The position numbers and the translations under genes are program-made. A stretch of DNA of 45,053 nucleotides from Escherichia phage vB_ecoS_OzMSK. Shown piece by piece: positions 1,641 to 44,995 of the stretch. The notes beneath the pieces were generated by a model that saw nothing but the letters and a program-made list of their open reading frames with translations, did not search any database and was not told the origin of the DNA. How positions within the stretch are numbered: the first letter of the stretch is position 1; each line of letters opens with the position of its first letter. The stretch lies in sequence record PQ659294.1; one strand, given 5' to 3'.

Positions 1641-1856
1641 ATGCTTATAAAATGCGTTTACGTAAGGCAAGCCAATAGCCACAACCTTTCAGTTGTAAAT
1701 GGCGGGATATACGTAGCTAAGCCAATACCTTGTTTTAATGGCTCATACCACATCAAGATTGATGACAATGAGTACATAGTAAAGACGGTAGGTGAAGCCC
1801 TCATGATAAAGAGCCTAGGTATCATAATGGCTAAATTCGAAATCGTTAGCAAATAG
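1641..1856 (+). CDS. hypothetical protein (71 aa)
   Basis: ORF; stop TAG lies inside the first promoter-like motif copy. Confidence 0.4.
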   Translation: MLIKCVYVRQANSHNLSVVNGGIYVAKPIPCFNGSYHIKIDDNEYIVKTVGEALMIKSLGIIMAKFEIVSK

Positions 1857-1896
1857 CACGAATTGCTAAACAATGGATCGGGTAGTCAGCTATGAT
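1851..1896 (+). promoter_or_regulatory. class-A promoter-like cassette (AAATAGCACGAATTGCTAAA, ~22 nt, TATGAT)
   Basis: Inverted repeat TAGCA-N5-TGCTA followed at conserved spacing by a -10-like hexamer and a conserved leader; same architecture recurs about 15 times. Confidence 0.5.
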
Positions 1897-1926
1897 TACC
1901 CCATCGACAACAAAGAGGAAATTAAG

Positions 1927-2115
1927 GTGATTAACCTAACTGATGATGAGTGCATTGCTGTAATAAAGGTTTCTAAGTTGATGAGTCAAAGATTTGACAC
2001 GCTTTCACTAAAGCATGGTTTTGCCTGGGAGATTTTTGATGATCATGTCAACCTGGATGACTTCATGTCAGCATCTATTAAGATTAAAGAATATATAAAA
2101 GAGGTGAGTGAATAA
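1927..2115 (+). CDS. small protein, member 1 of a tandem paralog trio (GTG start; the track ORF 1873..2115 starts inside the promoter cassette)
   Basis: Leader aligns with other cassette leaders (..caaagaggaaattaagGTG); N-terminus INLTDDE resembles MITINLSEE and MITINLSDK of the next two genes. Confidence 0.4.
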   Translation: MINLTDDECIAVIKVSKLMSQRFDTLSLKHGFAWEIFDDHVNLDDFMSASIKIKEYIKEVSE

Positions 2116-2116
2116 G

Positions 2117-2308
2117 ATGATTACTATCAACCTGTCAGAGGAGATGGCTGCCGACCTTCTTGATTCGCTAAGCCTGGTCAAAATTCGCTACGGAACTTAC
2201 CACAGAAGCGAATCAGTAAAGGAGGTGGTAAAGCAAGTTAAGCAGCAGGTCGGAGTGGTCAAGATCGAATTGCAGAACACCCCATACGATTTTAAGAAAG
2301 GTGAATAA
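2117..2308 (+). CDS. small protein, tandem paralog 2 (63 aa)
   Basis: ATG 2117 preceded by gaggtgagtgaataag; N-terminus MITINLSEE. Confidence 0.5.
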   Translation: MITINLSEEMAADLLDSLSLVKIRYGTYHRSESVKEVVKQVKQQVGVVKIELQNTPYDFKKGE

Positions 2309-2309
2309 G

Positions 2310-2528
2310 ATGATTACAATTAACCTGTCAGATAAGCAAGCAGCAGAACTGAAGTCCATGCTGTCAATCTTTGAGAAGCCAAATGACCGAGCAATTTCAA
2401 AAGAGGTTATTACTCAAATCAACAACCAGCAATTCGACGTAAGTGACTTCGAGTCATCACGACAGTACGAGGCGCTTAGCGTCAATGCGGCATACCTGAC
2501 TAATTGGGATAAGGCGACTAATAAATGA
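2310..2528 (+). CDS. small protein, tandem paralog 3 (72 aa)
   Basis: ATG 2310 preceded by near-identical aaggtgaataag; N-terminus MITINLSDK. Confidence 0.5.
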   Translation: MITINLSDKQAAELKSMLSIFEKPNDRAISKEVITQINNQQFDVSDFESSRQYEALSVNAAYLTNWDKATNK

Positions 2529-2754
2529 TTCTAAATGTTGATTTTGCAAGCTCCAGAGCTTGTAATATTTTGGATTCCGACGCGGCATGAAGTTGATTGC
2601 TGTAGTAAACGAACGCGGAATCCTCACAGTTAAATAACCGAAGACTGGCGTGCATATGCACGTAAAAGAAAATGGCGGAAGAGTTTTTATCAGATCAATG
2701 TCTGGTGAAACAATGGTAGCATCCTCAAAAATATAAGTACAAGGCGAATAAGAA

Positions 2755-2898
2755 ATGATTTACATCCATACATACTACACTGGTAAGTTTAACAGCGTTA
2801 AGCACGTTCGAGTGTACGAGGGGTTTCATAAAGCATTTGAGCAGCAGAGGGTTCTTGGTGGAACTATTAAGTGGTGTGAAGTTGTCAAAGAATGCTAA
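2755..2898 (+). CDS. possible small protein (~47 aa)
   Basis: ORF below the track cutoff; start context gaataagaaATGATTTAC resembles the paralog trio starts; stop in motif copy 2. Confidence 0.25.
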   Translation: MIYIHTYYTGKFNSVKHVRVYEGFHKAFEQQRVLGGTIKWCEVVKEC

Positions 2899-2942
2899 AT
2901 AGCACGAATTGCTAAACGCAGTCGCCACGGATGGCATATAAT
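2897..2942 (+). promoter_or_regulatory. class-A promoter-like cassette (motif, then TATAAT at 2937..2942)
   Basis: Consensus motif and -10-like hexamer at the conserved spacing. Confidence 0.5.
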
Positions 2943-2972
2943 TACCCAGTCAACACAAAGAGAGATTGAGAA

Positions 2973-3143
2973 ATGTTAACGATAATGATGACTAACCTTG
3001 AGTTAAATGAATTCAGCATTCTAGCTTTTATTATGCCAATACTGCTAATTCTTCCATTCGCTGCGTACGTCGTAATGAAAGATAATGCAGAGTGGAAGCG
3101 GATTGATAAGAAAATCAAAGAAGCAACGCACAGGAATAAGTAA
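2973..3143 (+). CDS. small membrane protein (56 aa, one hydrophobic helix)
   Basis: ORF below the track cutoff; sits at the conserved distance after the cassette leader; hydrophobic segment FSILAFIMPILLILPFAAYVV. Confidence 0.35.
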   Translation: MLTIMMTNLELNEFSILAFIMPILLILPFAAYVVMKDNAEWKRIDKKIKEATHRNK

Positions 3144-3144
3144 A

Positions 3145-3384
3145 ATGTTCGGACTAAATGAAGCTATGTTTAATGCAGTAAAGCGCCAGGCTAAAAAGCT
3201 CAACGATAAGTATGAGTCATTAAGCAAGCTTGACCGCAAGAATGATAAGTTAGTTGCGGGTATAATCACTGAGATTTGGCAACCAGTTTCTACAGTTATT
3301 AGCAGGGATCGATTTGTGTGGGTAGCCGGGTATCTCAAAGGTCGAGTTGGTCATGACGAGAATGGGAATAGCCTTTATGAGTGA
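3145..3384 (+). CDS. hypothetical protein (79 aa; ATG at 3145 within track ORF 3085..3384)
   Basis: TAAAATG stop-start junction with the upstream small ORF; basic N-terminal region. Confidence 0.4.
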   Translation: MFGLNEAMFNAVKRQAKKLNDKYESLSKLDRKNDKLVAGIITEIWQPVSTVISRDRFVWVAGYLKGRVGHDENGNSLYE

Positions 3385-3707
3385 GTTAACAATCTGGTTT
3401 ATCGCGGGACTGATTGCTTGGGGTTACTTTTTAATCGTTTAGATGAGATTGTTAAAAAGAGCTTGCATCACTGACCGGAATTATCTAACATTAACAACGT
3501 AGACAAACGAGGCCACCAAGTGGCAACGGCGCACGGAGCGAACTACACGGTAAGCCCGCTGTTCATTAAGTAGCATATGCGGCACATTGGACCAAGAGGA
3601 TAAGGCGTAAACCTCAACCCTTATGGGACTTGGAAGACCTAGCGCAAATAGGCAGATTAACCGGCTGTATCAGGCAGCCCCGGAGCCGTAACCGGGACTC
3701 ATTCAAA

Positions 3708-3785
3708 GCTCCGCTAGCTCAATTGGATAGCAGCAACGACCTTCTAAGTCGTAGGTTACTGGTTCGAGGCCAGTGCGGAGCGCCA
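3708..3785 (+). tRNA. tRNA-Arg, anticodon UCU, with encoded CCA
   Basis: Hand-folded cloverleaf: acceptor GCTCCGC/GCGGAGC (7 bp), U8, A14, GG in D-loop, anticodon stem ACGAC/GTCGT with loop CTTCTAA, 5-nt variable loop, T-stem ACTGG/CCAGT with loop TTCGAGG, discriminator G, CCA. Confidence 0.7.
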
Positions 3786-3812
3786 AATTTAACCAATAAT
3801 CCTGGGGGATTC

Positions 3813-3998
3813 ATGAAAATTGTAACATTCATCGTGAAAGATTCAGAAACAGGTTCCGTTCAGAAGTTTAACGCAAAGATGGACTTCACGGAAACCCGAG
3901 TGGTCAAAGGATCACTTAATGGAGTTTCTGTATCCGCGCAGCTTCCGCATGGTTTTGATTACTTATTCGGAAAACAATCAGCAAATGACGATGAGTAG
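3813..3998 (+). CDS. hypothetical protein (61 aa)
   Basis: ATG at 3813 with upstream GGGGGA; this is the 3' part of track ORF 3630..3998, whose 5' part runs through the tRNA. Confidence 0.4.
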   Translation: MKIVTFIVKDSETGSVQKFNAKMDFTETRVVKGSLNGVSVSAQLPHGFDYLFGKQSANDDE

Positions 3999-4182
3999 CT
4001 TGTGGGATGTGAAGTTGTCCATTCGCTTAATGGGCCGCTCGTGCAAGAATTGCACTCAAGATTACATCGCGTCAGTTGCCGCAATCAGCGCTGAGGATGC
4101 GGTAGCGAAAGTAAAGAGTATGTCAGGAGCTGCCCCTGATACTCACAAATTCCTGGTAGCTTACGTTCGTGAGCGAAAGTAA
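3985..4182 (+). CDS. hypothetical protein (~65 aa)
   Basis: ORF followed by a strong intrinsic terminator; start 3985 or 3991 uncertain. Confidence 0.35.
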   Translation: MTMSSLWDVKLSIRLMGRSCKNCTQDYIASVAAISAEDAVAKVKSMSGAAPDTHKFLVAYVRERK

Positions 4183-4226
4183 AAAGCGTTATACCCTCGT
4201 TAAGTTTCGTTTCTCTCGTTGTTTTT

Positions 4227-4250
4227 AGCCCTCGCTTGAGGGCTTTTTTT
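4227..4250 (+). terminator. rho-independent terminator (AGCCCTCGCTTGAGGGCT + T7)
   Basis: GC hairpin followed by a T-run. Confidence 0.7.
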
Positions 4251-4270
4251 CGTCTGTAATATGGTATAAT
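4251..4270 (+). promoter_or_regulatory. sigma70-like promoter with extended -10 (TGGTATAAT) ahead of the packaging/head operon
   Basis: TGGTATAAT at 4262..4270 directly after the terminator; AAGGAGG RBS and ATG 4294 follow. Confidence 0.5.
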
Positions 4271-4293
4271 CTGACCTCAACAAAGGAGGATTT

Positions 4294-4800: not shown

Positions 4801-4818
4801 CAATAAGAGGGTATAACA

Positions 4819-10085: not shown

Positions 10086-10113
10086 TTGCGTGGGCTAAAA
10101 ACTCGTGTATAAT
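10086..10113 (+). promoter_or_regulatory. sigma70-like promoter (TTGCGT, 16 nt, TATAAT) for the major capsid gene
   Basis: Near-consensus -35/-10 hexamers with 16-nt spacer. Confidence 0.55.
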
Positions 10114-11125: not shown

Positions 11126-11189
11126 ACGTCTGTACCAAATGGAATTGTTGGGTTATAATCACTCAATCAGATAAACAAAGGAGACAAAA

Positions 11190-13751: not shown

Positions 13752-13757
13752 AACACA

Positions 13758-13779
13758 AACCCTCTTCGGAGGGTTTTTT
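13758..13779 (+). terminator. rho-independent terminator (AAACCCTCTTCGGAGGGTTTTTT)
   Basis: GC hairpin with TTCG loop and T-run. Confidence 0.7.
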
Positions 13780-13784
13780 ATTGC

Positions 13785-13827
13785 ATAGCACTTTTGCTAA
13801 AGCACTTATTCAGCTTTACTGTATAGT
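13785..13827 (+). promoter_or_regulatory. degenerate class-A cassette (ATAGCACTTTTGCTAAAG, then TATAGT) driving the moron
   Basis: Variant of the inverted-repeat motif plus -10-like TATAGT and a leader resembling other cassettes. Confidence 0.4.
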
Positions 13828-14471: not shown

Positions 14472-14783
14472 GTGTATCTACAGTACCAGTCAGATCCAAC
14501 AGATGCCGAACTGGAAGCTATTGGGATGCGCCGCTCTGATTACGAAGACGAAGAGCCTGAAGTTTTGCACTTCGACGATAACATGATGAAGGCGTGGGAC
14601 ATTTATTGTTCAATGGCGACACAGTGGAGAGTCGGAGCCAACGGACCAACGGGCCTAGATTACAACGTGCTAAATTTCCTCTTTAGAGTGTATAATGTTT
14701 CTGAAGAGGAATTGGTACTCAGCGATTTACGCATCCTTGAAGCTAAGGCTCTCGAGATGATGGATAACCTGATAAAAAAATAA
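14472..14783 (+). CDS. tail assembly chaperone T-like extension (probably made as a G-T fusion by -1 frameshift)
   Basis: ORF in the -1 frame relative to G, no convincing independent RBS, followed by terminator and tape measure. Confidence 0.5.
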   Translation: MYLQYQSDPTDAELEAIGMRRSDYEDEEPEVLHFDDNMMKAWDIYCSMATQWRVGANGPTGLDYNVLNFLFRVYNVSEEELVLSDLRILEAKALEMMDNLIKK

Positions 14784-14806
14784 CCCGCTTCGGCGGGTTT
14801 TCTATT
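14782..14806 (+). terminator. terminator-like hairpin (AACCCGCTTCGGCGGGTT + TTCTATT)
   Basis: GC hairpin with TTCG loop; weak T-run. Confidence 0.45.
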
Positions 14807-18181: not shown

Positions 18182-18204
18182 AAGCCCCTATGCGGGGCTT
18201 TTTT
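18182..18204 (+). terminator. rho-independent terminator (AAGCCCCTATGCGGGGCTTTTTT)
   Basis: GC hairpin plus T6. Confidence 0.6.
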
Positions 18205-20301: not shown

Positions 20302-20323
20302 TACCCGCCTAGTGCGGGTTTTT
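20302..20323 (+). terminator. terminator-like hairpin (ACCCGCCTAGTGCGGGT + T6)
   Basis: GC hairpin plus T-run. Confidence 0.55.
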
Positions 20324-25036: not shown

Positions 25037-25082
25037 ATAGTATCGCATCCTTGCGATCAGTGTTTAGCAATTCGTGCTATTT
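25037..25082 (-). promoter_or_regulatory. class-A promoter-like cassette inside the 3' end of the methylase gene, ahead of the lipoprotein gene
   Basis: Minus-strand AAATAGCACGAATTGCTAAA then TACTAT at the conserved spacing; the motif encodes the methylase C-terminus INSTNC and its stop. Confidence 0.5.
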
Positions 25083-25756
25083 ATTCTTTCTTTCGCAATT
25101 TTAAAGTAATCCGAATCAAGCTCTATACCTATAAAGCTCCTTCTTGTATTGACGCATGCCACGCCAGTGGTTCCGCTACCCATGCAGTTATCAAGAACTG
25201 TATCCCCTTCGTTTGTATATGTATTAATCAGGTATTCCATTAACGCTACGGGCTTTTGGGTAGGGTGTGCGCCTGTTTCTGTTGCGAATTCAAGAATTGT
25301 GGTTGGGTATCCAGTAACTGTTTGTCTTGTTGTCTTACTGCACTCATTGTAATTTCCGCGATTGGTTCTTGAAACCATCACATCCGTTTGCCTTGTCCCT
25401 TGCGGGTTGTATGTTGGCTGATTTGCATAAAACACCGCTATATCTTCAGTGTTTATAAGTGGTTGCTTTTTCGCATTTAGATGTCCAGTAGGTTTTGATT
25501 TTTTCCAAATCCAGCAATATTTAAATTCCTTTAGATTGCTTGTTATCAGCGCGGACGTGAAAGGCTGTGCGCAAGTAAGAACAACCGCCCCACGGCTTAT
25601 GCGGCGGTATTGACGCCAAAGTAACCGCAAATCGATGATGACATCCCATCTGTTTCTCGTTGTTCCATACGGCAAATCACATAAAATAAGGTCTATACTC
25701 TTGTCTGGGATATCATTCATCATCTCTAAGCAGTCGCCATTCATTAATTTAATCAT
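25064..25756 (-). CDS. dam: DNA N6-adenine methyltransferase (Dam-like)
   Basis: Motif IV DLPYG (ILCDLPYGT) precedes motif I-like [10 protein letters not shown], as in N6-adenine methyltransferases; 230 aa. Confidence 0.8.
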
Positions 25757-25790: not shown

Positions 25791-25835
25791 ATAATACAGC
25801 CGCCGCTGCGGAATGTCTTTAGCTATTCGTGCTAT
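25791..25835 (-). promoter_or_regulatory. class-A promoter-like cassette upstream of the methylase operon
   Basis: Minus-strand AATAGCACGAATAGCTAAA then TATTATTACC and a conserved leader. Confidence 0.5.
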
Positions 25836-26150: not shown

Positions 26151-26297
26151 TTTTACGTAACAAGTGGCAATGCCTACACGGAATTACAATGATTCGCACG
26201 TAAACTTAAATCAACGATTGGCAAAACCAATTGGACTGGTTACCGTGCTGAATATATAGTTAACCCATCTAAAGCAAACAACCAGAGAGATACAGAA

Positions 26298-26495: not shown

Positions 26496-27461
26496 ATGAG
26501 CTTTAAAGTTTTTACGAGAAATGAGCTAAGCAACGAGGCTTACCACTCTGAGACTGATCACATCTCAGGATCCTCACTTGTCGAGATTATTCAGGGTTCA
26601 CCAGCCAAGTGGAAATTCAAGCAGCGCAATAGCGATAGCAAGGCTCTTAAGTTTGGCACCCTAAGCCACACGATGATTTTAGAGCAAGATGTATTTGATA
26701 AAGAATACCTTCGAGCTACAGACCTTGACGCGATTGAAGGATTAATTACAAGCCAGGCTGGACTGTCGGCAGCACTTAAAAAAAATGGCGTGGCTGGCAC
26801 GTCCGGGAAGGGCTGTAGCGAGCTCGTGGAGATGATGTACAGCTCTGGCGAGGATTGGCCTGTTAAATGGCTAATTGAGCAGCAGGAGAGCGCTCAAGCG
26901 CTTGTGGAGGGTAAGGAGCTAGTTAGTGCCGCTGACTACGATAAAGTTGTGGCTATGCGTGAGGTTCTTTGCAATATACCGGCATATAATGCAATCGTGA
27001 ATAGTGAGACAGCACAAAAAGAGCTATCAATATTCGGTGAGATTCTTGGTGTCGGCGTGAAGATTCGAATTGACCACGTTGACGTTGTTGATGGGGTGGT
27101 AATGATCAACGATTATAAAACTACCGCAGACGCAAGCCCGGAAGGGTTTGGTAAATCGGCATTCTCGCACGGATATCTTGCAAAAATGGCATTGCAGCGA
27201 GATCTGTTTGTGAAGGCATTTAACGAGAAGCGCAAGGTTGTTGTGGGATTACTGGCACAGGAGAAGGTAGAGCCATACTTGCCAATGCGATACACGCTAA
27301 CAGATGAACAGCTACGAATCGGTAGATTGCAGTATCTTGAGGCGCTTGCCACTTACAAGAAGTGCAAGGAGCTTGATATCTGGCCTGGCTACTCAAATGG
27401 CATTACAGAGCAAGAGCTATTGGTTCCTGAGTGGGCATTAAAACAATACAAAGAAATCTAA
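26496..27461 (+). CDS. PD-(D/E)XK-type exonuclease (putative recombination exonuclease)
   Basis: 321 aa; candidate nuclease motif D..INDYK (RIDHVDVVDGVVMINDYKT); immediately upstream of Erf-like and SSB genes. Confidence 0.5.
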   Translation: MSFKVFTRNELSNEAYHSETDHISGSSLVEIIQGSPAKWKFKQRNSDSKALKFGTLSHTMILEQDVFDKEYLRATDLDAIEGLITSQAGLSAALKKNGVAGTSGKGCSELVEMMYSSGEDWPVKWLIEQQESAQALVEGKELVSAADYDKVVAMREVLCNIPAYNAIVNSETAQKELSIFGEILGVGVKIRIDHVDVVDGVVMINDYKTTADASPEGFGKSAFSHGYLAKMALQRDLFVKAFNEKRKVVVGLLAQEKVEPYLPMRYTLTDEQLRIGRLQYLEALATYKKCKELDIWPGYSNGITEQELLVPEWALKQYKEI

Positions 27462-27505
27462 ATAGCACTAATTGCTAAAAACAAAATTGAAAGATTGGGT
27501 ATGAT
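27460..27505 (+). promoter_or_regulatory. class-A promoter-like cassette (AAATAGCACTAATTGCTAAA, then TATGAT)
   Basis: Motif overlaps the upstream stop codon; -10-like hexamer at the conserved spacing. Confidence 0.5.
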
Positions 27506-31318: not shown

Positions 31319-31338
31319 AAAATAGCACGAATTGCTAA
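31319..31338 (+). promoter_or_regulatory. class-A motif copy in plus orientation, 21 nt upstream of the minus-strand tail fibre start
   Basis: AAATAGCACGAATTGCTAAG; the only copy oriented against the adjacent downstream gene. Confidence 0.4.
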
Positions 31339-31363
31339 GTTGGATTGTAGCATCTTTCAGGCA

Positions 31364-32312: not shown

Positions 32313-32337
32313 AGTTACCTCCATAAACAATAAATGC

Positions 32338-32383
32338 ACTATACACAATGTATAGCGCCACTGTTTATCAATTCGTGCTATTT
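32338..32383 (-). promoter_or_regulatory. class-A promoter-like cassette upstream of primase
   Basis: Minus-strand AAATAGCACGAATTGATAAA then TATAGT; motif overlaps the stop of the upstream gene. Confidence 0.5.
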
Positions 32384-32860
32384 CCCTTGCTCTTTAGCTT
32401 TTCGCGCTGCCTCGTTAGCGGCCTTAATCTTGCGCCATGATCGACACTCTGTCTTGGTGGCTAATTCAGCCTCAGTAACAACACGCAGCATGTGACGCTT
32501 TTTGCAACGAAGAGTTAGCGGCTTCCCGTTACCGTCGAATTGCAAATCTGGTCGGCAGAATGTGGCGCGAAAACCTTCTCCATTTCGCTTGTAGTAGTTG
32601 TGCGACAGCTGGGCGCCACGTGCCGATATCATGCCGCGCTTAAACCATTGTTCTACAGCCTGTGGTGTTACCTTTAACTGCTTTGCGATATTCGCCTTTG
32701 TGCCGAAGAAATCAAGAACTATCTCCAGGCGTGCCCGTAACCCTGCTCTTACTTCATCCTTTAAAACGTAGTAACCTGAAGGTCGTTTACGTTGCTTTTT
32801 GTCTTCAGTGCGGATAGTTCCGTTGTTGCCGTTAATGGTTCTCTTGTCGACTGTATTCAT
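32378..32860 (-). CDS. putative DNA-binding protein (160 aa, basic, HTH-like segment)
   Basis: Highly basic; segment IAKQLKVTPQAVEQWFKRG resembles a helix-turn-helix. Confidence 0.4.
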   Translation of the reverse strand: MNTVDKRTINGNNGTIRTEDKKQRKRPSGYYVLKDEVRAGLRARLEIVLDFFGTKANIAKQLKVTPQAVEQWFKRGMISARGAQLSHNYYKRNGEGFRATFCRPDLQFDGNGKPLTLRCKKRHMLRVVTEAELATKTECRSWRKIKAANEAARKAKEQGK

Positions 32861-32961
32861 CTTATTACCTCAATAGCATTTTTTGTTAAAAGTAATTCTG
32901 ATTTGATGTTAGTATTGTACTTAATTGAACGCTACAAGACAATTTTTATAGGAGTTTAGAT

Positions 32962-34956
32962 ATGTTGCCTATCGAGAAGCTGGTTGCAAACTTCGATAAA
33001 GAAAGAATCAAGCAGATTCAGAAAGATTACCAGTTTGGCGAGATAACCCCTTACGAATTCCAGTGCGTTACATTTGACGTAATTGGGAAGGCTATTGGCA
33101 AGTACGAAGCGCCATTTATCGCAGACCTTTCCGTATCGGCTGGTAAGACAATCATTCTTGCTATGATTGGAAAGCGAATGGAGCAGCTTGGTCTTCCTTA
33201 TATGGTTCTCTCTCGCCAGTCAGAGATAATCAGCCAGAACTCAGAAGAGCTTCGTAATTTCGGGATCCGTAACAGCGTATATTGCGCTGGCCTTAACGTT
33301 AAATCAGTTTACTACCCAACCATAGTTGCTAGCGAAGGAACTGCGGCTAATGGCTTATTTAAGGGGCTTGGTGACTATGTTCCTGCCGTTATAGCTATAG
33401 ATGAATGTCACATGCTTGATACCATAGATATTGTGGAAGCCGAAGAGAATGAAGAAACATTTGAGCAAATGAGCACAAAGAAGGGCGAGATGGTTTTTAA
33501 GGATGGCGTTAATACTGGATTGCTTGGTACTGGTCGTGCGCAGTACACGCTAATAATCACTGAGATGAAGCGTCGCTGCCGTGAAAAATACGGGCGGGAG
33601 CTTCGTATATTCGGCCTTACTGGTAGCCCTTATCGAAACAATGACCATATCGTCGTCAGCAATCCAAACATCCGTGGGTTCTGGCGAAAAGCTGTGATTC
33701 ATGTTCCAACAAATTACCTTGTTGATTTGGGATTCGTGGTTCCTACTGTTTATGGCGAGGTTGGCGATTTAGGTTATGACCTTAGCGAGTTTGTTCCAGA
33801 CGGTAGTGATGGCGTGAAAGACTTTAGCAGAAAAGAAATGGATGCAATGGTCGCAAAGATTCACGACAACCAAACCATGACACAAAAGATAATGCAGTTT
33901 GTCGTCAAAATACTGGAGACTCGCAACGCCGCATTGGTCACCTGCGCCGGAAAACTCCATTGCAGCGAAGCGGCTTCCGCACTGCCTGACGGATACCCTT
34001 ACGCTATTATCACCGATTCTACCGGAGAGAGGAAGCGCAGAGAGATTCTTGCAGATTGCCAGACTGGAAAGTACAAGATTATCTTTCAGATTGGATGTCT
34101 AACCACGGGTGTAAACCAACCGCTGTGGGATACTAGCGTCATACTACGCAAGATTGGCAGTCTAACCTTAATGATTCAGCTTCTTGGTCGTGGCATGCGA
34201 AAACTAAAAAAGGCGCACATAGATGCTGGGTTCAAGAAGGAGGACCACTTGGTATTAGACTTTGCCGGAGCGCTTGATGACATGGCAGAGCTTTACTTTG
34301 ACCCGATAATTGAAGAGATTCAGGCTGAAAAGTTTAAAACATCAAGGAGGAGTGGTGATGAGGTTCGCCAGTGTCCGCAGTGTGGATATGATAACTCGCC
34401 ATTTGCTCGACGCTGTAGCAATAAGATTAATGGCGTTAGATGCGATCACTTTTTCCAGTTCACAACATGTGAGGATATTACCGACCAACAAACAAAGGCG
34501 GTAATCAAGAAAGGTTGTGGAACTAAAAATGACATAGCAGCAAAAGTTTGTCGTGAATGCGGAGAAATGCTTAAAGACCCAAACGCTAACCTGACTGGAA
34601 AGATGTATCGTCGCGGAGACTATTTGCGTGTTTATGACTTCCAGGTTGGATTAAGCAAAAATAAAACTGGTATAGTAGTTAAGTATAATATCATGGCGCA
34701 CAACGGAGAGAGGTTTAACGCGTGGGAGTTCTTTAACCCAGAATCAGACCATAGGGTTTGTAGTGTGCTTTGGAAAAACTTTTGCCTTGCTCACATTGAA
34801 AATCGCGCTGAAGCAGCACGGATTGGTAAAATTCGTAACGCAAAAATGATTATGATGAATGTAGATAAATTCCGTGCTCCAGTGCAAGTTACACACAGGA
34901 AGAACGGAAAGGGGAAGGATGTGATCGCATACAAGAATTTTGGAGAATTGAAATGA
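32962..34956 (+). CDS. SF2 helicase (DEAD/DEAH-like) with C-terminal Cys-rich zinc-ribbon region
   Basis: Walker A SVSAGKT, Walker B-like IDECHML, paired CxxC motifs (CPQCG, CRECG). Confidence 0.75.
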   Translation: MLPIEKLVANFDKERIKQIQKDYQFGEITPYEFQCVTFDVIGKAIGKYEAPFIADLSVSAGKTIILAMIGKRMEQLGLPYMVLSRQSEIISQNSEELRNFGIRNSVYCAGLNVKSVYYPTIVASEGTAANGLFKGLGDYVPAVIAIDECHMLDTIDIVEAEENEETFEQMSTKKGEMVFKDGVNTGLLGTGRAQYTLIITEMKRRCREKYGRELRIFGLTGSPYRNNDHIVVSNPNIRGFWRKAVIHVPTNYLVDLGFVVPTVYGEVGDLGYDLSEFVPDGSDGVKDFSRKEMDAMVAKIHDNQTMTQKIMQFVVKILETRNAALVTCAGKLHCSEAASALPDGYPYAIITDSTGERKRREILADCQTGKYKIIFQIGCLTTGVNQPLWDTSVILRKIGSLTLMIQLLGRGMRKLKKAHIDAGFKKEDHLVLDFAGALDDMAELYFDPIIEEIQAEKFKTSRRSGDEVRQCPQCGYDNSPFARRCSNKINGVRCDHFFQFTTCEDITDQQTKAVIKKGCGTKNDIAAKVCRECGEMLKDPNANLTGKMYRRGDYLRVYDFQVGLSKNKTGIVVKYNIMAHNGERFNAWEFFNPESDHRVCSVLWKNFCLAHIENRAEAARIGKIRNAKMIMMNVDKFRAPVQVTHRKNGKGKDVIAYKNFGELK

Positions 34957-35372
34957 ATATTACAGACAAAGTTGATTACATTGAGTTTTACCCGGGCCCG
35001 GTTAAGTCATGTCCTAAAGAGGATGACGAACAAATCTTTTGTTCTGATTGGGTTAAGTATAACTACCCGGATATGGTATTTTTCCACTGCGTGAATGAGG
35101 GTAAGAAAACCATTGGTCAAGCAAGAAAGGACCAGGCTAAAGGATTGCTTAAAGGGGTTTCGGACTGCTTATTCCTTATACCTGAATCACTGCGAGGCAA
35201 ATACCCATTTGGCGCTATAGAGCTAAAGAGAGCAGGTAAAACGCAAGCTAGCCCAGTTAGCGATGAGCAGAAGTCATTCCTAAAAAGCGTAAGAGAATCA
35301 GGTGGCTTCTCCGCAGTAGCCTATGGCAGAGGTGGCTTTCTTGCAGCATTCGCAGAGATGATTCGAAAATAG
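34953..35372 (+). CDS. VRR-NUC domain nuclease (PD-(D/E)XK fold)
   Basis: 139 aa; motif DCLFLIPE...GAIELKRAGK matches the D..E.K signature; ATGA overlap with helicase. Confidence 0.55.
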   Translation: MNITDKVDYIEFYPGPVKSCPKEDDEQIFCSDWVKYNYPDMVFFHCVNEGKKTIGQARKDQAKGLLKGVSDCLFLIPESLRGKYPFGAIELKRAGKTQASPVSDEQKSFLKSVRESGGFSAVAYGRGGFLAAFAEMIRK

Positions 35373-35412
35373 CACGAATTGCTAAAGACGAATCGGTGAG
35401 GTGGTGTATTAT
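35367..35412 (+). promoter_or_regulatory. class-A promoter-like cassette (first of a tandem pair)
   Basis: AAATAGCACGAATTGCTAAA then TATTAT; downstream ~165 nt has no plausible ORF. Confidence 0.5.
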
Positions 35413-35576
35413 CAACTCATCGAAACGAAACACTCACAAAAAAGGTGAGAAGTTGCAAACGTAGGCCGGAGCAACGAAAGACGTTTCAAAATATGATGTG
35501 ACAAACCCATGAGAAAGGAAGTTGCAAACGTAGGCCGGAGCAACGAAAATCACATCATAATAAATTATAACTTAGT
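35413..35576 (+). ncRNA. candidate small non-coding RNA or iteron region with two copies of a 29-bp element
   Basis: AGTTGCAAACGTAGGCCGGAGCAACGAAA at 35451..35479 and 35520..35548; each is an inverted repeat GTTGC..GCAAC around GGCCGG; no ORF longer than 8 codons. Confidence 0.3.
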
Positions 35577-35622
35577 AAATAGCACGAATTGCTAAAGAGG
35601 AATCGGTGAGGTGGTGTATTAT
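35577..35622 (+). promoter_or_regulatory. class-A promoter-like cassette (second of the tandem pair)
   Basis: Near-identical to 35367..35412 including GAATCGGTGAGGTGGTGTATTATCA. Confidence 0.5.
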
Positions 35623-36928: not shown

Positions 36929-38059
36929 ATGGCAGTAGCAAAGATTACCAACGAGCAGCTTATCGAAGAGTTGAAAAATGGCATGACTAACAAGGCGATT
37001 GCAGAGAAGTATGGCATGAACATTCGCAACGTCGAGCTTCGTCGCAGCAAGTTGGCTAAGAGTGGAGTTGGGCATGGTAATGAGGGTATCAATAAGCTAG
37101 TACCGGATGGATATTTAGTCAAGGGCACTTCAACCATGATTGATGCGGAAGGGAATGAGAAGCTGCGCTGGGTTAAGACGAGCGTTGATAATGAGCGCCT
37201 TGAGGTTTTAATGGAGCAAGCTCGAGAAGCGTTTTGCTCTGAGTTGCCAAAGGCAGATTCGGTCAACCACTCAGGTAATGAGGTCAATTCTGAATTAATG
37301 ACTCTTTACCCGATTTTCGATATCCATATCGGCATGATGGCTCATCGACATGAGTCTGGTGAAAATTATGACACGAACACAGCAGAGAAATTGATGGGGT
37401 CATATTTTGACCATGCAATTTCTGTATCACCAGCCTCGGAGAAAGCCGTGATTTTAGTTGGCGGCGACTTCCTTCACTCTGATGGACTGGAGGCTGTAAC
37501 CCCAGCAAGCGGACACTGCCTTGATCAAGATAGTCGATATGCCAAGTTAGTTTATGTAGCAATTCGATCAATTCGCGGTGCGGTAGAGAAGATGCTTAAG
37601 AAACACAAGGAGGTCGAGATTCAAATCATAGAGGGCAATCATGATCAAAGTGGTATGATTTGGCTTCGCGCTGCAATGGCTGCATTTTATGAAAGAGAGA
37701 GTCGAGTGTTTGTTGATACCAGTCCGGCAATCATGCACAAGACGCGATTTGGCTCAACATTACTTGGTTACACGCACGGTCACACGATGAAGAAAGCCGA
37801 GGGTCGACTAGCAGCAATGGCGACCGACTACCGCAAAGACTTTGGTGAATGTGAGTTTGTTTACTGCCACTCCGGCCATTTCCATCATGCAACTGTTACA
37901 GAGTGCACTCTTGGGATTGATGAAGTCCACCCTGCACTTGCTAGCAAGGATGCATATGCGGCACGGGGAGGGTGGAGATCATATCGACAAGCGGCTGCAA
38001 TTATTTACCACAAGAATTTTGGCGAGGTTGGTCGACACATTTATCGCCCAGGTATGTAA
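36929..38059 (+). CDS. metallophosphoesterase (calcineurin/Mre11-SbcD-like motifs) with N-terminal HTH-like domain
   Basis: Motifs FDIHIG (D-x-H), GGDFLHSDG (GD), EGNHDQ (GNHD), YTHGHT (GH); N-terminal MTNKAIAEKYGMNIRNVELRR resembles a sigma70-region-4/LuxR-type HTH. Confidence 0.55.
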   Translation: MAVAKITNEQLIEELKNGMTNKAIAEKYGMNIRNVELRRSKLAKSGVGHGNEGINKLVPDGYLVKGTSTMIDAEGNEKLRWVKTSVDNERLEVLMEQAREAFCSELPKADSVNHSGNEVNSELMTLYPIFDIHIGMMAHRHESGENYDTNTAEKLMGSYFDHAISVSPASEKAVILVGGDFLHSDGLEAVTPASGHCLDQDSRYAKLVYVAIRSIRGAVEKMLKKHKEVEIQIIEGNHDQSGMIWLRAAMAAFYERESRVFVDTSPAIMHKTRFGSTLLGYTHGHTMKKAEGRLAAMATDYRKDFGECEFVYCHSGHFHHATVTECTLGIDEVHPALASKDAYAARGGWRSYRQAAAIIYHKNFGEVGRHIYRPGM

Positions 38060-38133
38060 ATAGTACTTTTTGTTAATAAAGCCTCAAAGGATTGAGGCAA
38101 AATGAATAAACGATAAAGAGATGAGGAATTGTA

Positions 38134-38607: not shown

Positions 38608-39161
38608 AAATGACTAAATTATTTATCCTTAATGGCCCAGCTGGAGTTGGCAAGGACACTATAGCGGATATGATGGTTGAGACTGGTGTCGCAAAAGAAA
38701 AGGTATCATTCAAGTCACCAATATTTAGAGTTGCAAAAGGAATGCTATCAAGCGATGAATTTGATGAATTCATCAAGAATTACGACAATAGAGACTATAA
38801 GGAATCACCTCATAGATTTCTTGTCGGTATGACAGTTCGTGAATTTATGATTTGGATTAGCGAGTCTGTAATGAAGCCAGCCTTTGGTGATGATGTTTTC
38901 GGTAAAAGGCTAGCGCAGTCACTTGGTGATGGCTGCTACATTTGCGCTGACGGTGGATTTGCTAGCGAGATTAAGCCACTGATCGACGCTGGTGTTGAGG
39001 TCACGTTAATCAGATTGCATAGGGCAGGGTACACATTTGATGGCGATAGTCGCTCATACATTCACGGGGTGTGCGCAAGAGAAATTGATGTTCGTGTTGT
39101 TGATTGTGATATTAATGGAACATCAGCATTGGTAAGGCACGTAATAAATAGCACAAATTGA
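38604..39161 (+). CDS. deoxynucleoside monophosphate kinase (P-loop kinase, putative)
   Basis: N-terminal P-loop ILNGPAGVGKDT; size and motif typical of phage dNMP kinases; C-terminus INSTN is encoded by a class-A motif copy. Confidence 0.55.
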   Translation: MKMTKLFILNGPAGVGKDTIADMMVETGVAKEKVSFKSPIFRVAKGMLSSDEFDEFIKNYDNRDYKESPHRFLVGMTVREFMIWISESVMKPAFGDDVFGKRLAQSLGDGCYICADGGFASEIKPLIDAGVEVTLIRLHRAGYTFDGDSRSYIHGVCAREIDVRVVDCDINGTSALVRHVINSTN

Positions 39162-39166: not shown

Positions 39167-39232
39167 ATAATAATAAAAACTTAGTTATCATTAACACATC
39201 GAAACGAGATTAACTAAACGAGGAAACACAAA

Positions 39233-39755: not shown

Positions 39756-40241
39756 ATGAAGCAGAAGCTGCTAATTGGCGCGGCTACGGCTGCGGCGATA
39801 TACATCGCAGCGCCGCTTGTTGAGCTCGTTGAGGGTGTGGAGAATAATCCTTACATGGACATTGCCGGAATCCCTACGGTATGTTCCGGTATTACTGGAC
39901 CTGATGTTGTTTGGGGTAAGACTTACAGCAATAGGGAGTGCCGGAACCTACTGGAGAAGCACATCCAGATTCATGCTAAGTATGTTCAGGATGCGGTTAC
40001 TTACCCAATTGCACAGCAGACAAGGGCAGCGTTAATTAGCTTTAGCTACAACGTTGGTGGTCATGCCATGAAGAACTCAACGGCAGTTCGACTTATCAAC
40101 CAGGGTAAAGTGGAGCAGGGTTGCAAGGCTCTCGGAATGTGGAATAAGGCTACCGTTAATGGAAAAAAGGTTGTCGTTAAGGGTTTGGTGAATCGCAGGA
40201 ATGAGGAGATTAAGTTATGCTTAAGCGGATTGCAGCGTTAG
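39756..40241 (+). CDS. endolysin, T4-lysozyme-like (GH24) with probable N-terminal SAR signal-anchor
   Basis: Catalytic-triad spacing E-x8-D-x5-T (ELVEGVENNPYMDIAGIPTVCSGIT); Ala/Gly-rich weakly hydrophobic N-terminus LLIGAATAAAIYIAAPLV. Confidence 0.75.
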   Translation: MKQKLLIGAATAAAIYIAAPLVELVEGVENNPYMDIAGIPTVCSGITGPDVVWGKTYSNRECRNLLEKHIQIHAKYVQDAVTYPIAQQTRAALISFSYNVGGHAMKNSTAVRLINQGKVEQGCKALGMWNKATVNGKKVVVKGLVNRRNEEIKLCLSGLQR

Positions 40242-40848: not shown

Positions 40849-40931
40849 TTTATATACTCCTGTCTTAATATTATTTTCGGGTTGGCTTTTAAGCACCCGC
40901 GCTTCGATGGATTAATAATAGCAAAAGCCCT

Positions 40932-40955
40932 CTAGGGGCTTTTAACAAAAAGGGC
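40932..40955 (-). terminator. terminator-like hairpin (AAAAGCCCCTAGAGGGCTTTT)
   Basis: GC hairpin with flanking T-run on the minus strand. Confidence 0.5.
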
Positions 40956-40958
40956 TAT

Positions 40959-41294
40959 TTAATAGAATAATTCGTCGTCAGTCATTTTTCCTATGTTCAT
41001 CATCTCTTTTATGTACTTGCTCTCATACCCGCTAAGTGACTCAAAGTTGAAGCTAAATGGCCTATTTAAACTCCCCTTGCTAACAAACTCCCCACACTTA
41101 CCATCAATGTATCCAGCAGTTAACATCTTTGCGCAAAACTCCTTTGAAGCAGCGCTGCAAAACTCTCTATGCGATAACCCTGCCGCCTTGCTAAATCTCT
41201 TAGAATCCTTATGTTGGTAGATGAATCGCGCCAAATGCTGGCGCGTGAAATAGGAATACGACTCGCAGAACTTAAATATATCGAGCAGGAACAT
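40959..41294 (-). CDS. hypothetical protein (111 aa)
   Basis: ORF with several Cys and basic residues. Confidence 0.45.
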   Translation of the reverse strand: MFLLDIFKFCESYSYFTRQHLARFIYQHKDSKRFSKAAGLSHREFCSAASKEFCAKMLTAGYIDGKCGEFVSKGSLNRPFSFNFESLSGYESKYIKEMMNIGKMTDDELFY

Positions 41295-41380: not shown

Positions 41381-41383
41381 CTA

Positions 41384-42967: not shown

Positions 42968-43153
42968 TACTTCTCTCCGTGTTGTTTCTGAGAGGCCATT
43001 ATATCAACGACCTCTTACAATTCATTATCAATTTGTGATATTGGTTGTTCTTAATCCACTTTAGGCACATCCACAATCCAGCCCCATAAAATGCAATCTT
43101 AAGAATTTCAACCAACAAAAGGATAATAAAGTAACCACCACCAAGTAAATCAA

Positions 43154-43393
43154 TCATTTTTTAATCTCCATTTCCACAATTTCATAACTTATGTAATTAT
43201 TTATCATTCCAATAAGTGATTTTTGGTATGTTTTCATATGCTCCCTAGCGGAATCTTCATCAAGATGCGCTGATATGTTGTGAAAATTGTATTCATAATC
43301 CATGCCCATTAGTATGTATATCTTATCGTGCGCCTTAATGAGGTTATTTGATTTTATTTCCCCAAGCGACCATCCTTTTCCTTTTCTAATCAT
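43154..43393 (-). CDS. hypothetical protein (79 aa)
   Basis: ORF; overlapping stop-start with its neighbour. Confidence 0.45.
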   Translation of the reverse strand: MIRKGKGWSLGEIKSNNLIKAHDKIYILMGMDYEYNFHNISAHLDEDSAREHMKTYQKSLIGMINNYISYEIVEMEIKK

Positions 43394-43743
43394 TTGTATT
43401 GAGCCTCAAATCGATAGTCGCCGCAAACTGTAACAAAGCCAACATCTTCGTCACGATATAGCTGCCAGGCGCTGCCCTCTTTATCGTAAATGTATCCAGC
43501 ACGCTGCCCAAGTCCAGCATGGAGATCTACTTGATATCTCTTCCCTTCAGTGAAGTACTTACGAATGGATGAGCGATGATTAACATTTGTGCAGTAAATG
43601 GTCTTTGTCTTGATGTACTTGCCCCGCTCTTCAAGGTTAATCCATTTTCCATCTTTCTTGATTTGCTCTACTCCATTTTTAACGCGAGCTTTATAGAGTA
43701 CATTTTCGTTGCTGATCCAGTTTTTAGTTAGTGTAGTAGTCAT
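43390..43743 (-). CDS. hypothetical protein (117 aa)
   Basis: ORF; overlapping stop-start with its neighbours. Confidence 0.45.
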   Translation of the reverse strand: MTTTLTKNWISNENVLYKARVKNGVEQIKKDGKWINLEERGKYIKTKTIYCTNVNHRSSIRKYFTEGKRYQVDLHAGLGQRAGYIYDKEGSAWQLYRDEDVGFVTVCGDYRFEAQYK

Positions 43744-43904
43744 TTTGTTACTCTCTTAGTTGTCCACATGAATTTGTTAGGTACTGATTTGCGCACGATT
43801 CGCACAACAATCTTGTCAACCTTCTGAACTAAACCGTAAATCTTTCCATCAGGTGAGGCTCGGTAAAAAGCCTCATCAATTGCGTCATTAAAGTTGTCGA
43901 ACAT
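43740..43904 (-). CDS. possible small protein (54 aa)
   Basis: ORF below the track cutoff; ATGA overlap with the downstream gene and TAATG overlap with the upstream ORF. Confidence 0.3.
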   Translation of the reverse strand: MFDNFNDAIDEAFYRASPDGKIYGLVQKVDKIVVRIVRKSVPNKFMWTTKRVTK

Positions 43905-44083
43905 TAAATCTCTACCTTAACGTCAAACTCTTCAATAAGATAATAATCAGGACCAATTTCAAGATCTTTATCGATACCTGATAGTCTATTTTTTTCCAAT
44001 TCAGCCAGTTCATATGTATCAAAAACACCAAAAATTTCAAAACCGTCATAGTTAGTGTAACCATTAAGTATGTAAACTTTCAT
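43904..44083 (-). CDS. possible small protein (59 aa)
   Basis: ATG 44083 with GGGAG RBS directly after a class-A cassette. Confidence 0.35.
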   Translation of the reverse strand: MKVYILNGYTNYDGFEIFGVFDTYELAELEKNRLSGIDKDLEIGPDYYLIEEFDVKVEI

Positions 44084-44109
44084 TTTTTATCTCCCGTTTA
44101 GATGAGATG

Positions 44110-44155
44110 AATATACAGGAAAAGCCCCTGAAGGGTTTTAGCAATTCGTGCTATT
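44110..44155 (-). promoter_or_regulatory. class-A promoter-like cassette with an embedded hairpin
   Basis: Minus-strand AATAGCACGAATTGCTAAA, then CCCTTCAGGGG hairpin, then TATATT. Confidence 0.45.
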
Positions 44156-44299
44156 GCGTGCCTTTTCTATCGCCTTAAGCATAATTTCGTGACTTTCCAG
44201 TAAGTCCTCTCGGAACCAGTCCCCGCAAGGCCAACCCTTTCCGCTGTATGCGCTAATAACTTCCAGATCGAAGTAGTTTATCTCAGATGGTAATAGCAT
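44138..44299 (-). CDS. possible small protein (53 aa) ending ..NSTNC inside the motif
   Basis: ORF below the track cutoff; C-terminal NSTNC plus stop encoded by the class-A motif. Confidence 0.3.
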   Translation of the reverse strand: MLLPSEINYFDLEVISAYSGKGWPCGDWFREDLLESHEIMLKAIEKARNSTNC

Positions 44300-44310
44300 C
44301 AGTAATCATC

Positions 44311-44496
44311 CTATTCTTCTGGTTCGAAATCCCATACGATATATTCGCCTAATCTCTGAATTTCCGCACCAGACAGAAAATCGCCTAAAGCGAAAGATCT
44401 GTCTTCATCAGTTTTAAACGACTCCAAAGGGTACCGCTCGTAAAACTTATTAATTAAGTGTGCAATGTCAAATTTATCTGATTGATTAGTCATCAC
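44311..44496 (-). CDS. hypothetical protein (61 aa, acidic)
   Basis: ORF in a compact minus-strand block. Confidence 0.4.
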   Translation of the reverse strand: MMTNQSDKFDIAHLINKFYERYPLESFKTDEDRSFALGDFLSGAEIQRLGEYIVWDFEPEE

Positions 44497-44732
44497 TTCA
44501 CCTCGTCAAAAGTTGCAATACCAGGAATAAACATTTTAACCTTCCAGCCTTCGATAGCAATCCAGCCAGAATCGTTCTTGTGCGGTCTCTCAGCGCCATT
44601 AATCAACCACTCGTTCGGGATTACCTTGCCGTTAATGATTAGTGGCTCAGCGTCGTATACAGAGCCTTTAACGAACGGTGTTAACACTTTTTTGTCGGTA
44701 CTTGTAATGCAATTGGTGCAGCGAATTTTCAT
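44493..44732 (-). CDS. hypothetical protein (79 aa)
   Basis: ATG 44732 with GAGGA RBS; N-terminal CTNC pair. Confidence 0.45.
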   Translation of the reverse strand: MKIRCTNCITSTDKKVLTPFVKGSVYDAEPLIINGKVIPNEWLINGAERPHKNDSGWIAIEGWKVKMFIPGIATFDEVK

Positions 44733-44742
44733 ATCTCAATCC

Positions 44743-44922
44743 TCAAATAAATGGTAGGCATTCGGCGCATCCAAGTCCATCACAGCACAGGAATTCATCC
44801 TCTGACTGGAATTGCTTAGCCAAATCTATGTCTAACTTTCCGCGCAACACAAGGTCGGTGTAATCTTCGTTAAGCTCAATCAGTGCGCAATCGTGGCGCA
44901 ATTCATCTTTATCAATCTTCAT
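44743..44922 (-). CDS. possible small Cys-rich protein (59 aa)
   Basis: Hand-translated, no internal stops; GAGGG RBS; C-terminal CCDGLGCAEC; preceded by a degenerate class-A cassette. Confidence 0.35.
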   Translation of the reverse strand: MKIDKDELRHDCALIELNEDYTDLVLRGKLDIDLAKQFQSEDEFLCCDGLGCAECLPFI

Positions 44923-44949
44923 ATCTATACCCTCGTTGTTGGTGAGTTA

Positions 44950-44995
44950 ACTATAGCCTCGCCACCAGCACATGTCTTTAGCAAAAAGTGCTATT
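44950..44995 (-). promoter_or_regulatory. degenerate class-A cassette (AATAGCACTTTTTGCTAAA, then TATAGT)
   Basis: Motif variant with -10-like hexamer at the conserved spacing. Confidence 0.4.

Follow-up and report, generated by a model that had tools for sequence, protein, structure and literature searches.

We analyzed the 45,053-bp stretch of DNA from Escherichia phage vB_ecoS_OzMSK (sequence record PQ659294.1; hereafter the window) and describe a recurrent 19-bp element, the box, which carries the arms TAGCA and TGCTA around a 5-bp centre and, as judged from sequence comparisons, is well supported as the upstream component of a distinct promoter class of the T1-like phages. Two phage proteins are in contention as the reader of the box, and a Cro-like protein is the most likely one. 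Megablast comparisons identified the window as the complete genome of a T1-like siphovirus (Drexlerviridae), circularly permuted relative to Escherichia phage Msk (MW057918.1), whose name we use for it; the relatives found also include Rtp, SU57, and vB_EcoS_CEB_EC3a. Gene content was taken from the annotated relatives PCEc3, T1, and Rtp.

The box is strongly overrepresented in the Msk genome. The 19-mer AATAGCACGAATTGCTAAA has 12 matches with up to 3 mismatches (0.03 expected), the simpler pattern TAGCA-N5-TGCTA has 18 matches with up to 1 mismatch (2.0 expected), and a weight matrix built from six other genomes only recovers 18 Msk sites at 9 bits or more, compared to 1.45 in shuffled sequences. 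An earlier note on this DNA had listed about 15 recurrences of an inverted repeat followed by a -10-like hexamer, and the box or a variant of it is present at all 15 listed positions; three further sites had been overlooked, those beginning at 34812, 40941, and 43024 (Table 1). A hexamer of the TAnnnT type lies 19-21 nt past the box end (21-23 nt after TTGCTA) in 14 of the 15 boxes, which, with a background of 0.02 per position, gives a binomial P of ~2e-16. Once the copies are oriented, the element proves to be directional: the box is followed by 20 nt, a TATNAT hexamer, a TAcCnC discriminator, a leader of the CATCGAAACGA type (ATCGAAACGA or a variant), a ribosome-binding site (RBS), and a start codon in the same orientation, as the earlier note had proposed. 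The predicted leaders are 19-40 nt long in most Msk cassettes.

Most of the listed sites hold up as promoter cassettes, with several qualifications. The box at 31321 has neither a -10 hexamer nor a gene in its direction, and the predicted start of tail-fibre transcription on the opposite strand falls within it. The cassette at 35368 has a box and a -10 but drives no open reading frame (ORF), and that at 38059 is present but weak, with CAAAAT as its -10. The box at 13784 departs from the proposed element size of 19-20 bp, being 18 bp long with a 4-nt centre, but retains the usual 20-nt spacing. The description as an inverted repeat applies to 5 bp per arm, whereas the remaining conserved positions are asymmetric.

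The box does not supply a canonical -35 element. TTGCTA was correctly judged to be too distant for sigma70, since 22 nt separate it from the -10 hexamer; at 16-18 nt a -35 is not seen either, and the match to TTGACA there averages 2.58 of 6 positions, compared to 2.47 at random -10-like hexamers, and never reaches 5. Canonical sigma70 sites were not enriched in a scan of 40 kb of the Msk genome. If transcription starts at the conserved A that is the seventh base after the -10 (6 intervening bases), the box would be centred at about -42. Other ways of reading the same strings were rejected. The pairing of TTGCTA as a -35 with a different -10 located 17 nt downstream was ruled out on sequence inspection, and a sigma32 element (CCCCAT) on spacing or position. 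The sigma54 -24/-12 element (TGGCAC-N5-TTGC), which AGCAC...TTGC resembles, was discarded given the AG in place of GG, the N3 rather than N5 spacing, and the sigma70-type -10 located 20 nt downstream. An UP element, the A/T-rich tract from -59 to -38, is contradicted by the conserved G/C-containing cores AGCAC and TTGC and by the offset register.

The motif search that the earlier note had called for, over the genome and related T1-like genomes, recovered the cassette throughout the family. Many viral contigs of 45-51 kb contain more than one copy of the pattern ATAGCAC-N3-TTGCTAAA, and the -10 hexamer lies exactly 20 nt past the box in 154 of 248 unique instances. The whole genomes of T1, Rtp, Salmonella Tlsvirus GJL01, Citrobacter HCF1, and Vibrio phage Vc1 carry ~15-21 boxes each in the same arrangement as in Msk, and the same cassette is found in remote metagenomic relatives. 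In Rtp, the regions upstream of genes hold exactly 10 perfect copies of TAGCA-N5-TGCTA, and 20 boxes when up to 2 mismatches are allowed. The fixed box-to--10 spacing that defines the promoter type is present in 84 of the 100 boxes of six genomes, and a seven-genome profile of 100 instances displays the same architecture, which bears out the suggestion of a promoter class specific to this phage family. In this profile AATAGCAC is near-invariant at -51 to -44 and TTG[C/T]TAAA at -40 to -33, the centre between them is variable, G occupies -14 in 78% of the instances, and the -10 (TAtaaT) is followed by C at -3 and -1 and by A at +1 in 81%. Beyond the 5 palindromic base pairs per arm, the conserved features are asymmetric, namely C at -44, T at -40, and A-runs on both flanks.

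Two forms of the box can be distinguished by the centre, the G-type (CGAAT in Msk) and the T-type. In the 100-instance profile, C stands at -37 in 39 of the 41 boxes with a [G/T]AAT centre; among those with a TTTT centre, this position is T in 23 and C in 8. Orthologous promoters tend to keep their allele: the helicase promoter is T-type in all six genomes, and the G-type is found in 6 of 7 genomes at the promoter of the 527-aa helicase gene and in 4 of 4 at that of cor. The four Msk copies with TTTTT centres had been described as degenerate. They instead represent a second allele, AATAGCAC-TTTT-TG[T/C]TAAA, and its family-wide conservation together with its retention at orthologous promoters argues that this allele is functional.

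Essentially all non-structural operons on both strands are served by predicted box promoters. The structural module contains a single box, at 13784, and otherwise has box-less promoters after terminators (TGgTATAAT at 4262-4270, TTGCGT-16-TATAAT at 10086-10113, and TATAAT at 11154), three examples that agree with the earlier proposal of terminator-coupled TATAAT promoters for the late structural genes. The terminator-like hairpins of the tail operon at 14782-14799, 18182-18200, and 20303-20319 are followed by an RBS and start codon within 10-20 nt. This arrangement leaves no room for promoters, and thus late transcription must read through these hairpins, whether by antitermination, by leaky termination, or with the hairpins serving as RNA stabilisers.

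Terminators are also nested in the cassettes themselves. The 20-nt spacer between box and -10 often holds the terminator hairpin of the upstream operon, its U-tract merging into the -10, and both signals are contained in ~45 bp, as at 40923-40943(-) and 44116-44136(-) of the window and at 39975 and 41955 of T1. At the primase promoter, the -10 TATAGT forms one arm of a 10-bp-stem hairpin, 32336-32358(-), which is followed by a T-rich tract and is likely, from this layout, to be the terminator of the adjacent regulator gene.

Alongside the majority of boxes at about -42, a few occupy operator positions, so that both alternatives offered earlier, a promoter class with an upstream bound palindrome and an operator family, appear to hold. 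On the minus strand, AATAGCACGAATTGCTAAG starts 4 nt past the extended -10 TGcTACAAT of the tail-fibre promoter and hence covers the predicted start site of that promoter. The identical 19-mer AATAGCACGAATTGCTAAG is found at the same tail-fibre position in Rtp and T1, the T1 promoter being the canonical TTGCAA-17-TAAAAT. Retention of one 19-mer outside the promoter context in all three phages argues for a trans-acting DNA-binding protein over direct recognition by the polymerase. Another operator-like box occupies the region from which the regulator and helicase genes diverge in seven of seven genomes; it is separated by 10-14 nt from the regulator start codon and by 19-20 nt from the -10 of the helicase promoter. 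The regulator gene has canonical sigma70 promoters (TTGTCT-17-TACAAT in Msk, PCEc3, and Rtp; TTGAAT-17-TATAAT in T1; TTGACT-17-TATCAT in GJL01) that score 9-10 of 12 and are also present in the remote contigs L247 and L248. The -10 hexamers of the regulator and helicase promoters overlap on opposite strands, and the box, read in reverse, lies at +14 to +17 of the predicted regulator transcript (+17 to +35 in Msk). The arrangement looks like an autoregulatory switch.

This regulator is a 160-aa protein that the earlier note had recognized as a basic helix-turn-helix (HTH) protein, and its predicted fold is of the Cro/cI type. It matches P22_Cro/YdaS just under the Pfam threshold and phrog_2856 with E=6e-84. 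The protein is 97% identical to Rtp52, which is encoded in the same place, between the primase and helicase genes, and which is described in its GenBank note as an HTH regulator similar to T1 gp23. The regulator is a core gene of the family (824 T1-like records), and the family itself is narrow, with ~20 clusters at E <1e-10 among 1.84 billion representatives. Its invariant residues fall in a basic N-terminal arm (DKRxINGNNGTRRG...), helix 1, and a C-terminal subdomain.

The model that we favour, and whose chances of being right or wrong we consider evenly balanced, combines activation from -42 with repression from operator positions by this Cro-like protein. Host sigma70 polymerase would use each cassette, composed of a 19-21-bp box, a 20-nt free spacer, a TATAAT-like -10, a C-rich discriminator, and an A start followed by a short A/C-rich leader, RBS, and start codon. 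A protein bound at the box, ~42 bp upstream of the inferred start, would touch the polymerase in the manner of lambda cI at PRM or of a class II activator. The regulator would be made first from its own canonical sigma70 promoter, the presence of which allows its product to precede the others, and would then switch on ~16 box promoters, which serve small early genes as well as functions in replication, recombination, nucleotide metabolism, and lysis. Repression would act at its own promoter, where the -10 overlaps the box-dependent promoter of the helicase gene and the leader contains a box, and would shut this promoter down; the tail-fibre promoter, whose start site is covered by a box, would be held back.

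Several observations weigh against this model. The predicted recognition helix of the Cro-like protein is variable, and its HTH helices contain almost no invariant residues. No co-variation between regulator and box was detected at any depth (T1, GJL01, HCF1, Vc1, P0121, P0122, and P0117): the box is unchanged in the HCF1/Vc1 clade although the recognition helix is quite different there, equally unchanged beside the remotest homologs P0121 and P0122, whose helix is also quite different, and unchanged beside P0117, whose regulator does not have the otherwise invariant N-terminal arm. The presence of ~17 sites per genome may freeze the code and thereby explain the missing co-variation, an explanation that gives no positive support to the Cro-like protein. 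The asymmetry of the box is unusual for a Cro-type homodimer, the figure of -42 is uncertain by 1-2 bp since the starts are inferred, and 40% of the box promoters, having a TG extended -10, might be active in the absence of an activator. Finally, the phage encodes a further core protein whose fold is of a DNA-binding type and whose helix 3 is more strongly conserved.

This second protein, of 111 aa, belongs to phrog_2794 and has a confidently predicted winged-helix fold; its homologs are labelled 'YdbL' in some records. That it reads the box, alone or together with the Cro-like protein, for example with one allele each, is an improbable but serious alternative. Its helix 3 is invariant across subfamilies (R43, F45, S50, K51, E52, and F53), which suits an invariant box better than the Cro-like protein does; the protein is core in all lineages, with 58% identity in the remote contig L248; and the retention of two discrete alleles at orthologous promoters would fit two readers. 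However, its gene lies inside an operon driven by box promoters (44137 and 43024), in contrast to the Cro-like gene with its host-type promoter, so that as a sole activator it would need itself to be made first. It has no Pfam match, and apart from the box at 40941-40959, which adjoins the 3' end of its gene and serves the one that follows, no box is placed beside the gene for autoregulation. Scans of 20 small ORFs revealed no other DNA-binding family, and the DUF7174 protein encoded by the first gene was dismissed as a family-wide factor because it is not core.

Readings without a phage reader fare less well. That sigma70 region 4 and/or the C-terminal domain of the alpha subunit reads the box directly as a constitutive upstream element, possibly after remodelling by a small phage protein in the manner of T4 AsiA/MotA, seems to us quite improbable. 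The TTGCTA or TTGTTA within the box, its A-run flanks, the extended -10 features of many box promoters, and the invariance of the box across hosts, which parallels that of the polymerase, would all suit direct recognition. However, the 22 nt from TTGCTA to the -10 are beyond the sigma70 range, and, from our reading of the profile, the box is too poor in A/T for an UP element and ~8 bp off its position. Moreover, the asymmetric 19-mer is kept reversed over the tail-fibre start and in the regulator leader, where a role as promoter element is impossible, the scans of the 20 small ORFs against Pfam and PHROG gave no MotA or AsiA family hit, and no host promoters with the cassette were found in 100,044 species genomes. 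Still less probable, in our view, is binding by a host protein present at infection, for which Lrp is the best match; the box promoters would then be immediate-early, and boxes at late promoters would impose a delay until the protein is titrated. The arms TAGCA/TGCTA around a 5-bp centre agree with the Lrp arms YAGHA/TDCTR at 10 of 10 arm positions (consensus yAGhAwATTwTdCTr, as verified in a published paper), the T-type centre is AT-rich, as Lrp prefers, and, although the phage proteins diverge, the box remains the same in phages of Escherichia, Salmonella, Klebsiella, Citrobacter, and Vibrio. At the centre, however, the Lrp consensus is matched at 1-2 of 5 positions by the G-type and 3 of 5 by the T-type, CGAAT breaking 4 of the 5 central positions, and the positions flanking the 15-bp Lrp site are equally conserved. 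The box is also kept in the leader of the phage regulator gene, which points to autoregulation rather than Lrp, and the scan of 100,044 species genomes yielded no host regulatory locus with the cassette. T1-resistant E. coli mutants, over decades of work, map to fhuA and tonB and are not known to map to lrp, which likewise weighs against Lrp.

The hits of that genome scan were chance matches in AT-rich taxa, T1-like phage fragments, and a single coding locus of Enterobacterales that has a TATT centre but lacks a -10. The latter locus (L126, L143, L147, L192, and ~15 others) contains AATAGCACTATTTGCTAAA and appears by eye to be the 3' end of a coding gene (reverse strand, ...WWRDEILANSAI...); it was discarded as a regulatory site, being a coding coincidence.

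The mechanism proposed for the favoured Cro-like reader is not new in kind. As with lambda cI at OR2/PRM, a Cro/cI-fold protein is encoded beside its putative site of ~17-19 bp with 5-bp inverted arms, the site would be centred near -42 of a promoter with a poor -35, and the same type of site recurs at potentially repressing positions and between overlapping divergent promoters. In contrast to lambda, Msk is strictly lytic, has ~17 genome-wide sites rather than the tripartite OL/OR, carries one box in the divergent region (seven of seven genomes), and uses a strongly asymmetric site, and its protein is extended at the N terminus by a basic stretch of 30 aa and has a C-terminal subdomain. The Mu Mor/C middle and late promoters and CRP/FNR class II promoters similarly combine a -10, no -35, and a dyad-containing activator site that overlaps the -35 region at about -41.5 to -43.5, but the protein families are unrelated, and the scan of small ORFs detected no Mor/C or CRP domain. 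T4 middle promoters, which rely on the MotA box and on sigma appropriation by AsiA, likewise have a sigma70 -10 and, in place of a -35, a phage-specific upstream box that contains TGCT; a MotA-box reading was nevertheless rejected, as the T4 box is centred at -30, 11-13 bp from the -10, whereas the Msk box ends 20 nt from it. The Lrp site is alike in arms and 5-bp spacing but differs in centre and flanks.

The element was probably already noted in Rtp in 2006. The Rtp genome paper of that year in J Bacteriol by Wietzorrek, Schwarz, Herrmann, and Braun reportedly describes Rtp52 as a putative regulator and attributes to it 10 conserved inverted repeats upstream of genes, compared to one in E. 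coli, an account with which the count of exactly 10 perfect repeats in Rtp and the GenBank note on rtp52 are consistent; it is said not to describe the -42 geometry, the two alleles, the operator placements, the family-wide invariance, or the missing co-variation. The Rtp repeats are the same element as the Msk box, and both genomes encode an Rtp52-type regulator between primase and helicase. To our knowledge, the transcription programme of T1, a classical coliphage, has never been mapped. Among the papers accessible to a literature search, none contained the motif string, none dealt with promoter motifs or transcriptomes of Drexlerviridae, and none quoted the claim about the Rtp repeats. No promoters are annotated in the GenBank records of T1, Rtp, and PCEc3 or in other public records, and two papers reporting genomes of close relatives relied on NNPP or BPROM alone, which as generic sigma70 predictors overlook the box promoters.

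One cassette accounting for ~17 promoters per genome would allow promoters to be annotated correctly in over 800 genomes of Drexlerviridae, among them many candidates for phage therapy; cassette and regulator form a compact, portable pair for engineering, and the unmapped T1 programme becomes directly testable, with the regulator identifiable by a small set of decisive experiments. A more sweeping interpretation, which we put forward as doubtful, is that T1-like phages run nearly their whole non-structural programme through one frozen operator with two discrete, position-specific alleles (GAAT/TGCTA and TTTT/TGTTA), which would be recognized by the Cro-like core protein, the winged-helix core protein, or both. 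A lambda-style switch would thus have been rebuilt as a lytic timing device, and the multiplicity of sites would lock the code while the proteins drift.

Table 1. Boxes, box-less promoters, and candidate box readers in the Msk genome (positions in the window).
Feature	Position	Strand	Details
Box, G-type consensus	1852..1870	+	-10 TATGAT 1891-1896; predicted start ~1903; GTG 1927; 31.8 bits
Box, G-type	2898..2916	+	-10 TATAAT 2937-2942; predicted start ~2949; ATG 2973
18-bp box variant CATAGCACTTTTGCTAAA	13784..13801	+	Right after terminator 13757-13776; -10 TATAGT 13822-13827; ATG 13861
Box, G-type	25063..25081	-	-10 TACTAT 25037-25042; predicted start ~25030; upstream of cor-type lipoprotein gene
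Box AATAGCACGAATAGCTAAA	25818..25836	-	-10 TATTAT 25791-25796 (spacer 21); serves 230-aa ORF 25064-25756, read as a putative DNA methyltransferase from its N-terminal sequence only
Box AATAGCACTAATTGCTAAA	27461..27479	+	-10 TATGAT 27500-27505; small ORF, then Erf and SSB genes; 33.3 bits
Operator-type box AATAGCACGAATTGCTAAG	31321..31339	+	No -10; opposite tail-fibre promoter TGcTACAAT (TACAAT 31344-31349)
Box AATAGCACGAATTGATAAA	32364..32382	-	-10 TATAGT 32338-32343 inside 10-bp-stem hairpin; primase gene; leader differs
T-type box AATAGCATTTTTTGTTAAA	32872..32890	+	Divergent regulator/helicase region; about -42 of helicase promoter, -10 TAGTAT 32910-32915
Canonical sigma70 promoter of regulator gene, TTGTCT-17-TACAAT	32914..32942	-	-10 overlaps helicase -10 on opposite strand
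160-aa Cro/cI-fold protein, phrog_2856	32378..32860	-	97% identical to Rtp52; ortholog of T1 gp23
Weak box AGCAGCACGGATTGGTAAA	34812..34830	+	Inside 3' end of helicase gene; -10 TATGAT 34851-34856; 16.9 bits; possible, uncertain internal promoter for VRR-NUC
Box, G-type	35368..35386	+	-10 TATTAT 35407-35412; predicted start ~35419; structured ORF-less ~160 nt downstream
Box, G-type, near-duplicate of 35368 cassette	35578..35596	+	-10 TATTAT 35617-35622; ATG 35659
Degenerate T-type box AATAGTACTTTTTGTTAAT	38059..38077	+	Hairpin in spacer; weak -10 CAAAAT 38098-38103; polynucleotide kinase gene; 19.3 bits
Box AATAGCACAAATTGATAAA	39147..39165	+	-10 TATCAT 39186-39191; ATG 39233 (DUF7244); upstream of lysis genes
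T-type box AATAGCCCTTTTTGTTAAA	40941..40959	-	Spacer filled by terminator hairpin 40923-40943; -10 TATTAT 40915-40920
Box variant AATATCACAAATTGATAAT	43024..43042	-	-10 TATAAT 42998-43003; 527-aa helicase gene; orthologous boxes in six other genomes
Box, G-type	44137..44155	-	-10 TATATT 44110-44115 (spacer 21); ATG 44083
T-type box AATAGCACTTTTTGCTAAA	44977..44995	-	-10 TATAGT 44950-44955 (spacer 21); ATG 44922
Box-less canonical promoter TTGATA-17-TACCAT with TG	503..531	+	Same leader type (ATCTTAACGAG); first gene (DUF7174); candidate immediate-early promoter
Box-less promoter-like site TGGACT-17-TATAGT	26232..26260	+	Cassette-type leader; upstream of recombination genes
111-aa winged-helix core protein (= T1 gp10, Rtp66)	40959..41294	-	Alternative candidate box reader

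Stop codons of upstream ORFs lie inside or abut several boxes (1854-1856, 35370-35372, 27459-27461, 38057-38059, and 39159-39161), the TAG at 1854-1856 and 35370-35372 being supplied by the box itself. Such box-borne stops, for example the TAG of AATAGCAC and the TGA of TTGATAA, show how tightly the genome is packed.

A promoter subclass that was not seen in Msk has an inverted repeat around the -10, as in GGCCA-tttgatatagt-GGCC. It was located in T1 (L122; 3534, 4863, and 47118), GJL01 (L123; 28915, 30017, 27479, and 32025), L124 (2515 and 5242), and L125 (46432), with compensatory changes that keep the pairing between sites (GGGCA/TGCCC, GGCACA/TGTGCC, and GGGTA/TACCC) and a leader of the form CCTTATTGAAG...AACCAATCAGGAG. 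RNA structure in the conserved leader of the cassette was rejected, as the variants ATCAAAACGA and ATAGAAACGA disrupt the 3-bp TCG/CGA pairing without compensation. The string AACCAATCAG(G/A)GGA is the commonest repeated 10-mer of T1 (as AACCAGTCAG), HCF1, and Vc1, with ~9 copies each (L122, L124, and L125), and occurs in Msk at ~550-560; in the inspected examples it coincides with the RBS and may represent an extended translation-initiation signal.

The ORF-less region downstream of the 35368 cassette, 35419-35577(+), spans ~160 nt and contains two 31-nt direct repeats (35449 and 35518), each with a GUUGC...GCAAC hairpin. Its fold energy has a z-score of -3.6, it has no Rfam match, and similar DNA is present in Escherichia virus TH27 (90% identity) and Salmonella phage FSL SP-126 (73%); the region is possibly a small RNA or an iteron-like element. 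The Rfam search of the sequence returned nothing but the tRNA, a tRNA-Arg(TCT) gene at 3708-3785(+), and the 122-aa ORF 3630-3998 that overlaps this gene is probably spurious. Many records named 'Campylobacter phage' and some named 'Pseudomonas phage' (MG065688, PP134917, and ON843697 are among the records concerned) are ordinary T1-like coliphages with up to ~89% nucleotide identity to Msk, and their host labels look doubtful.

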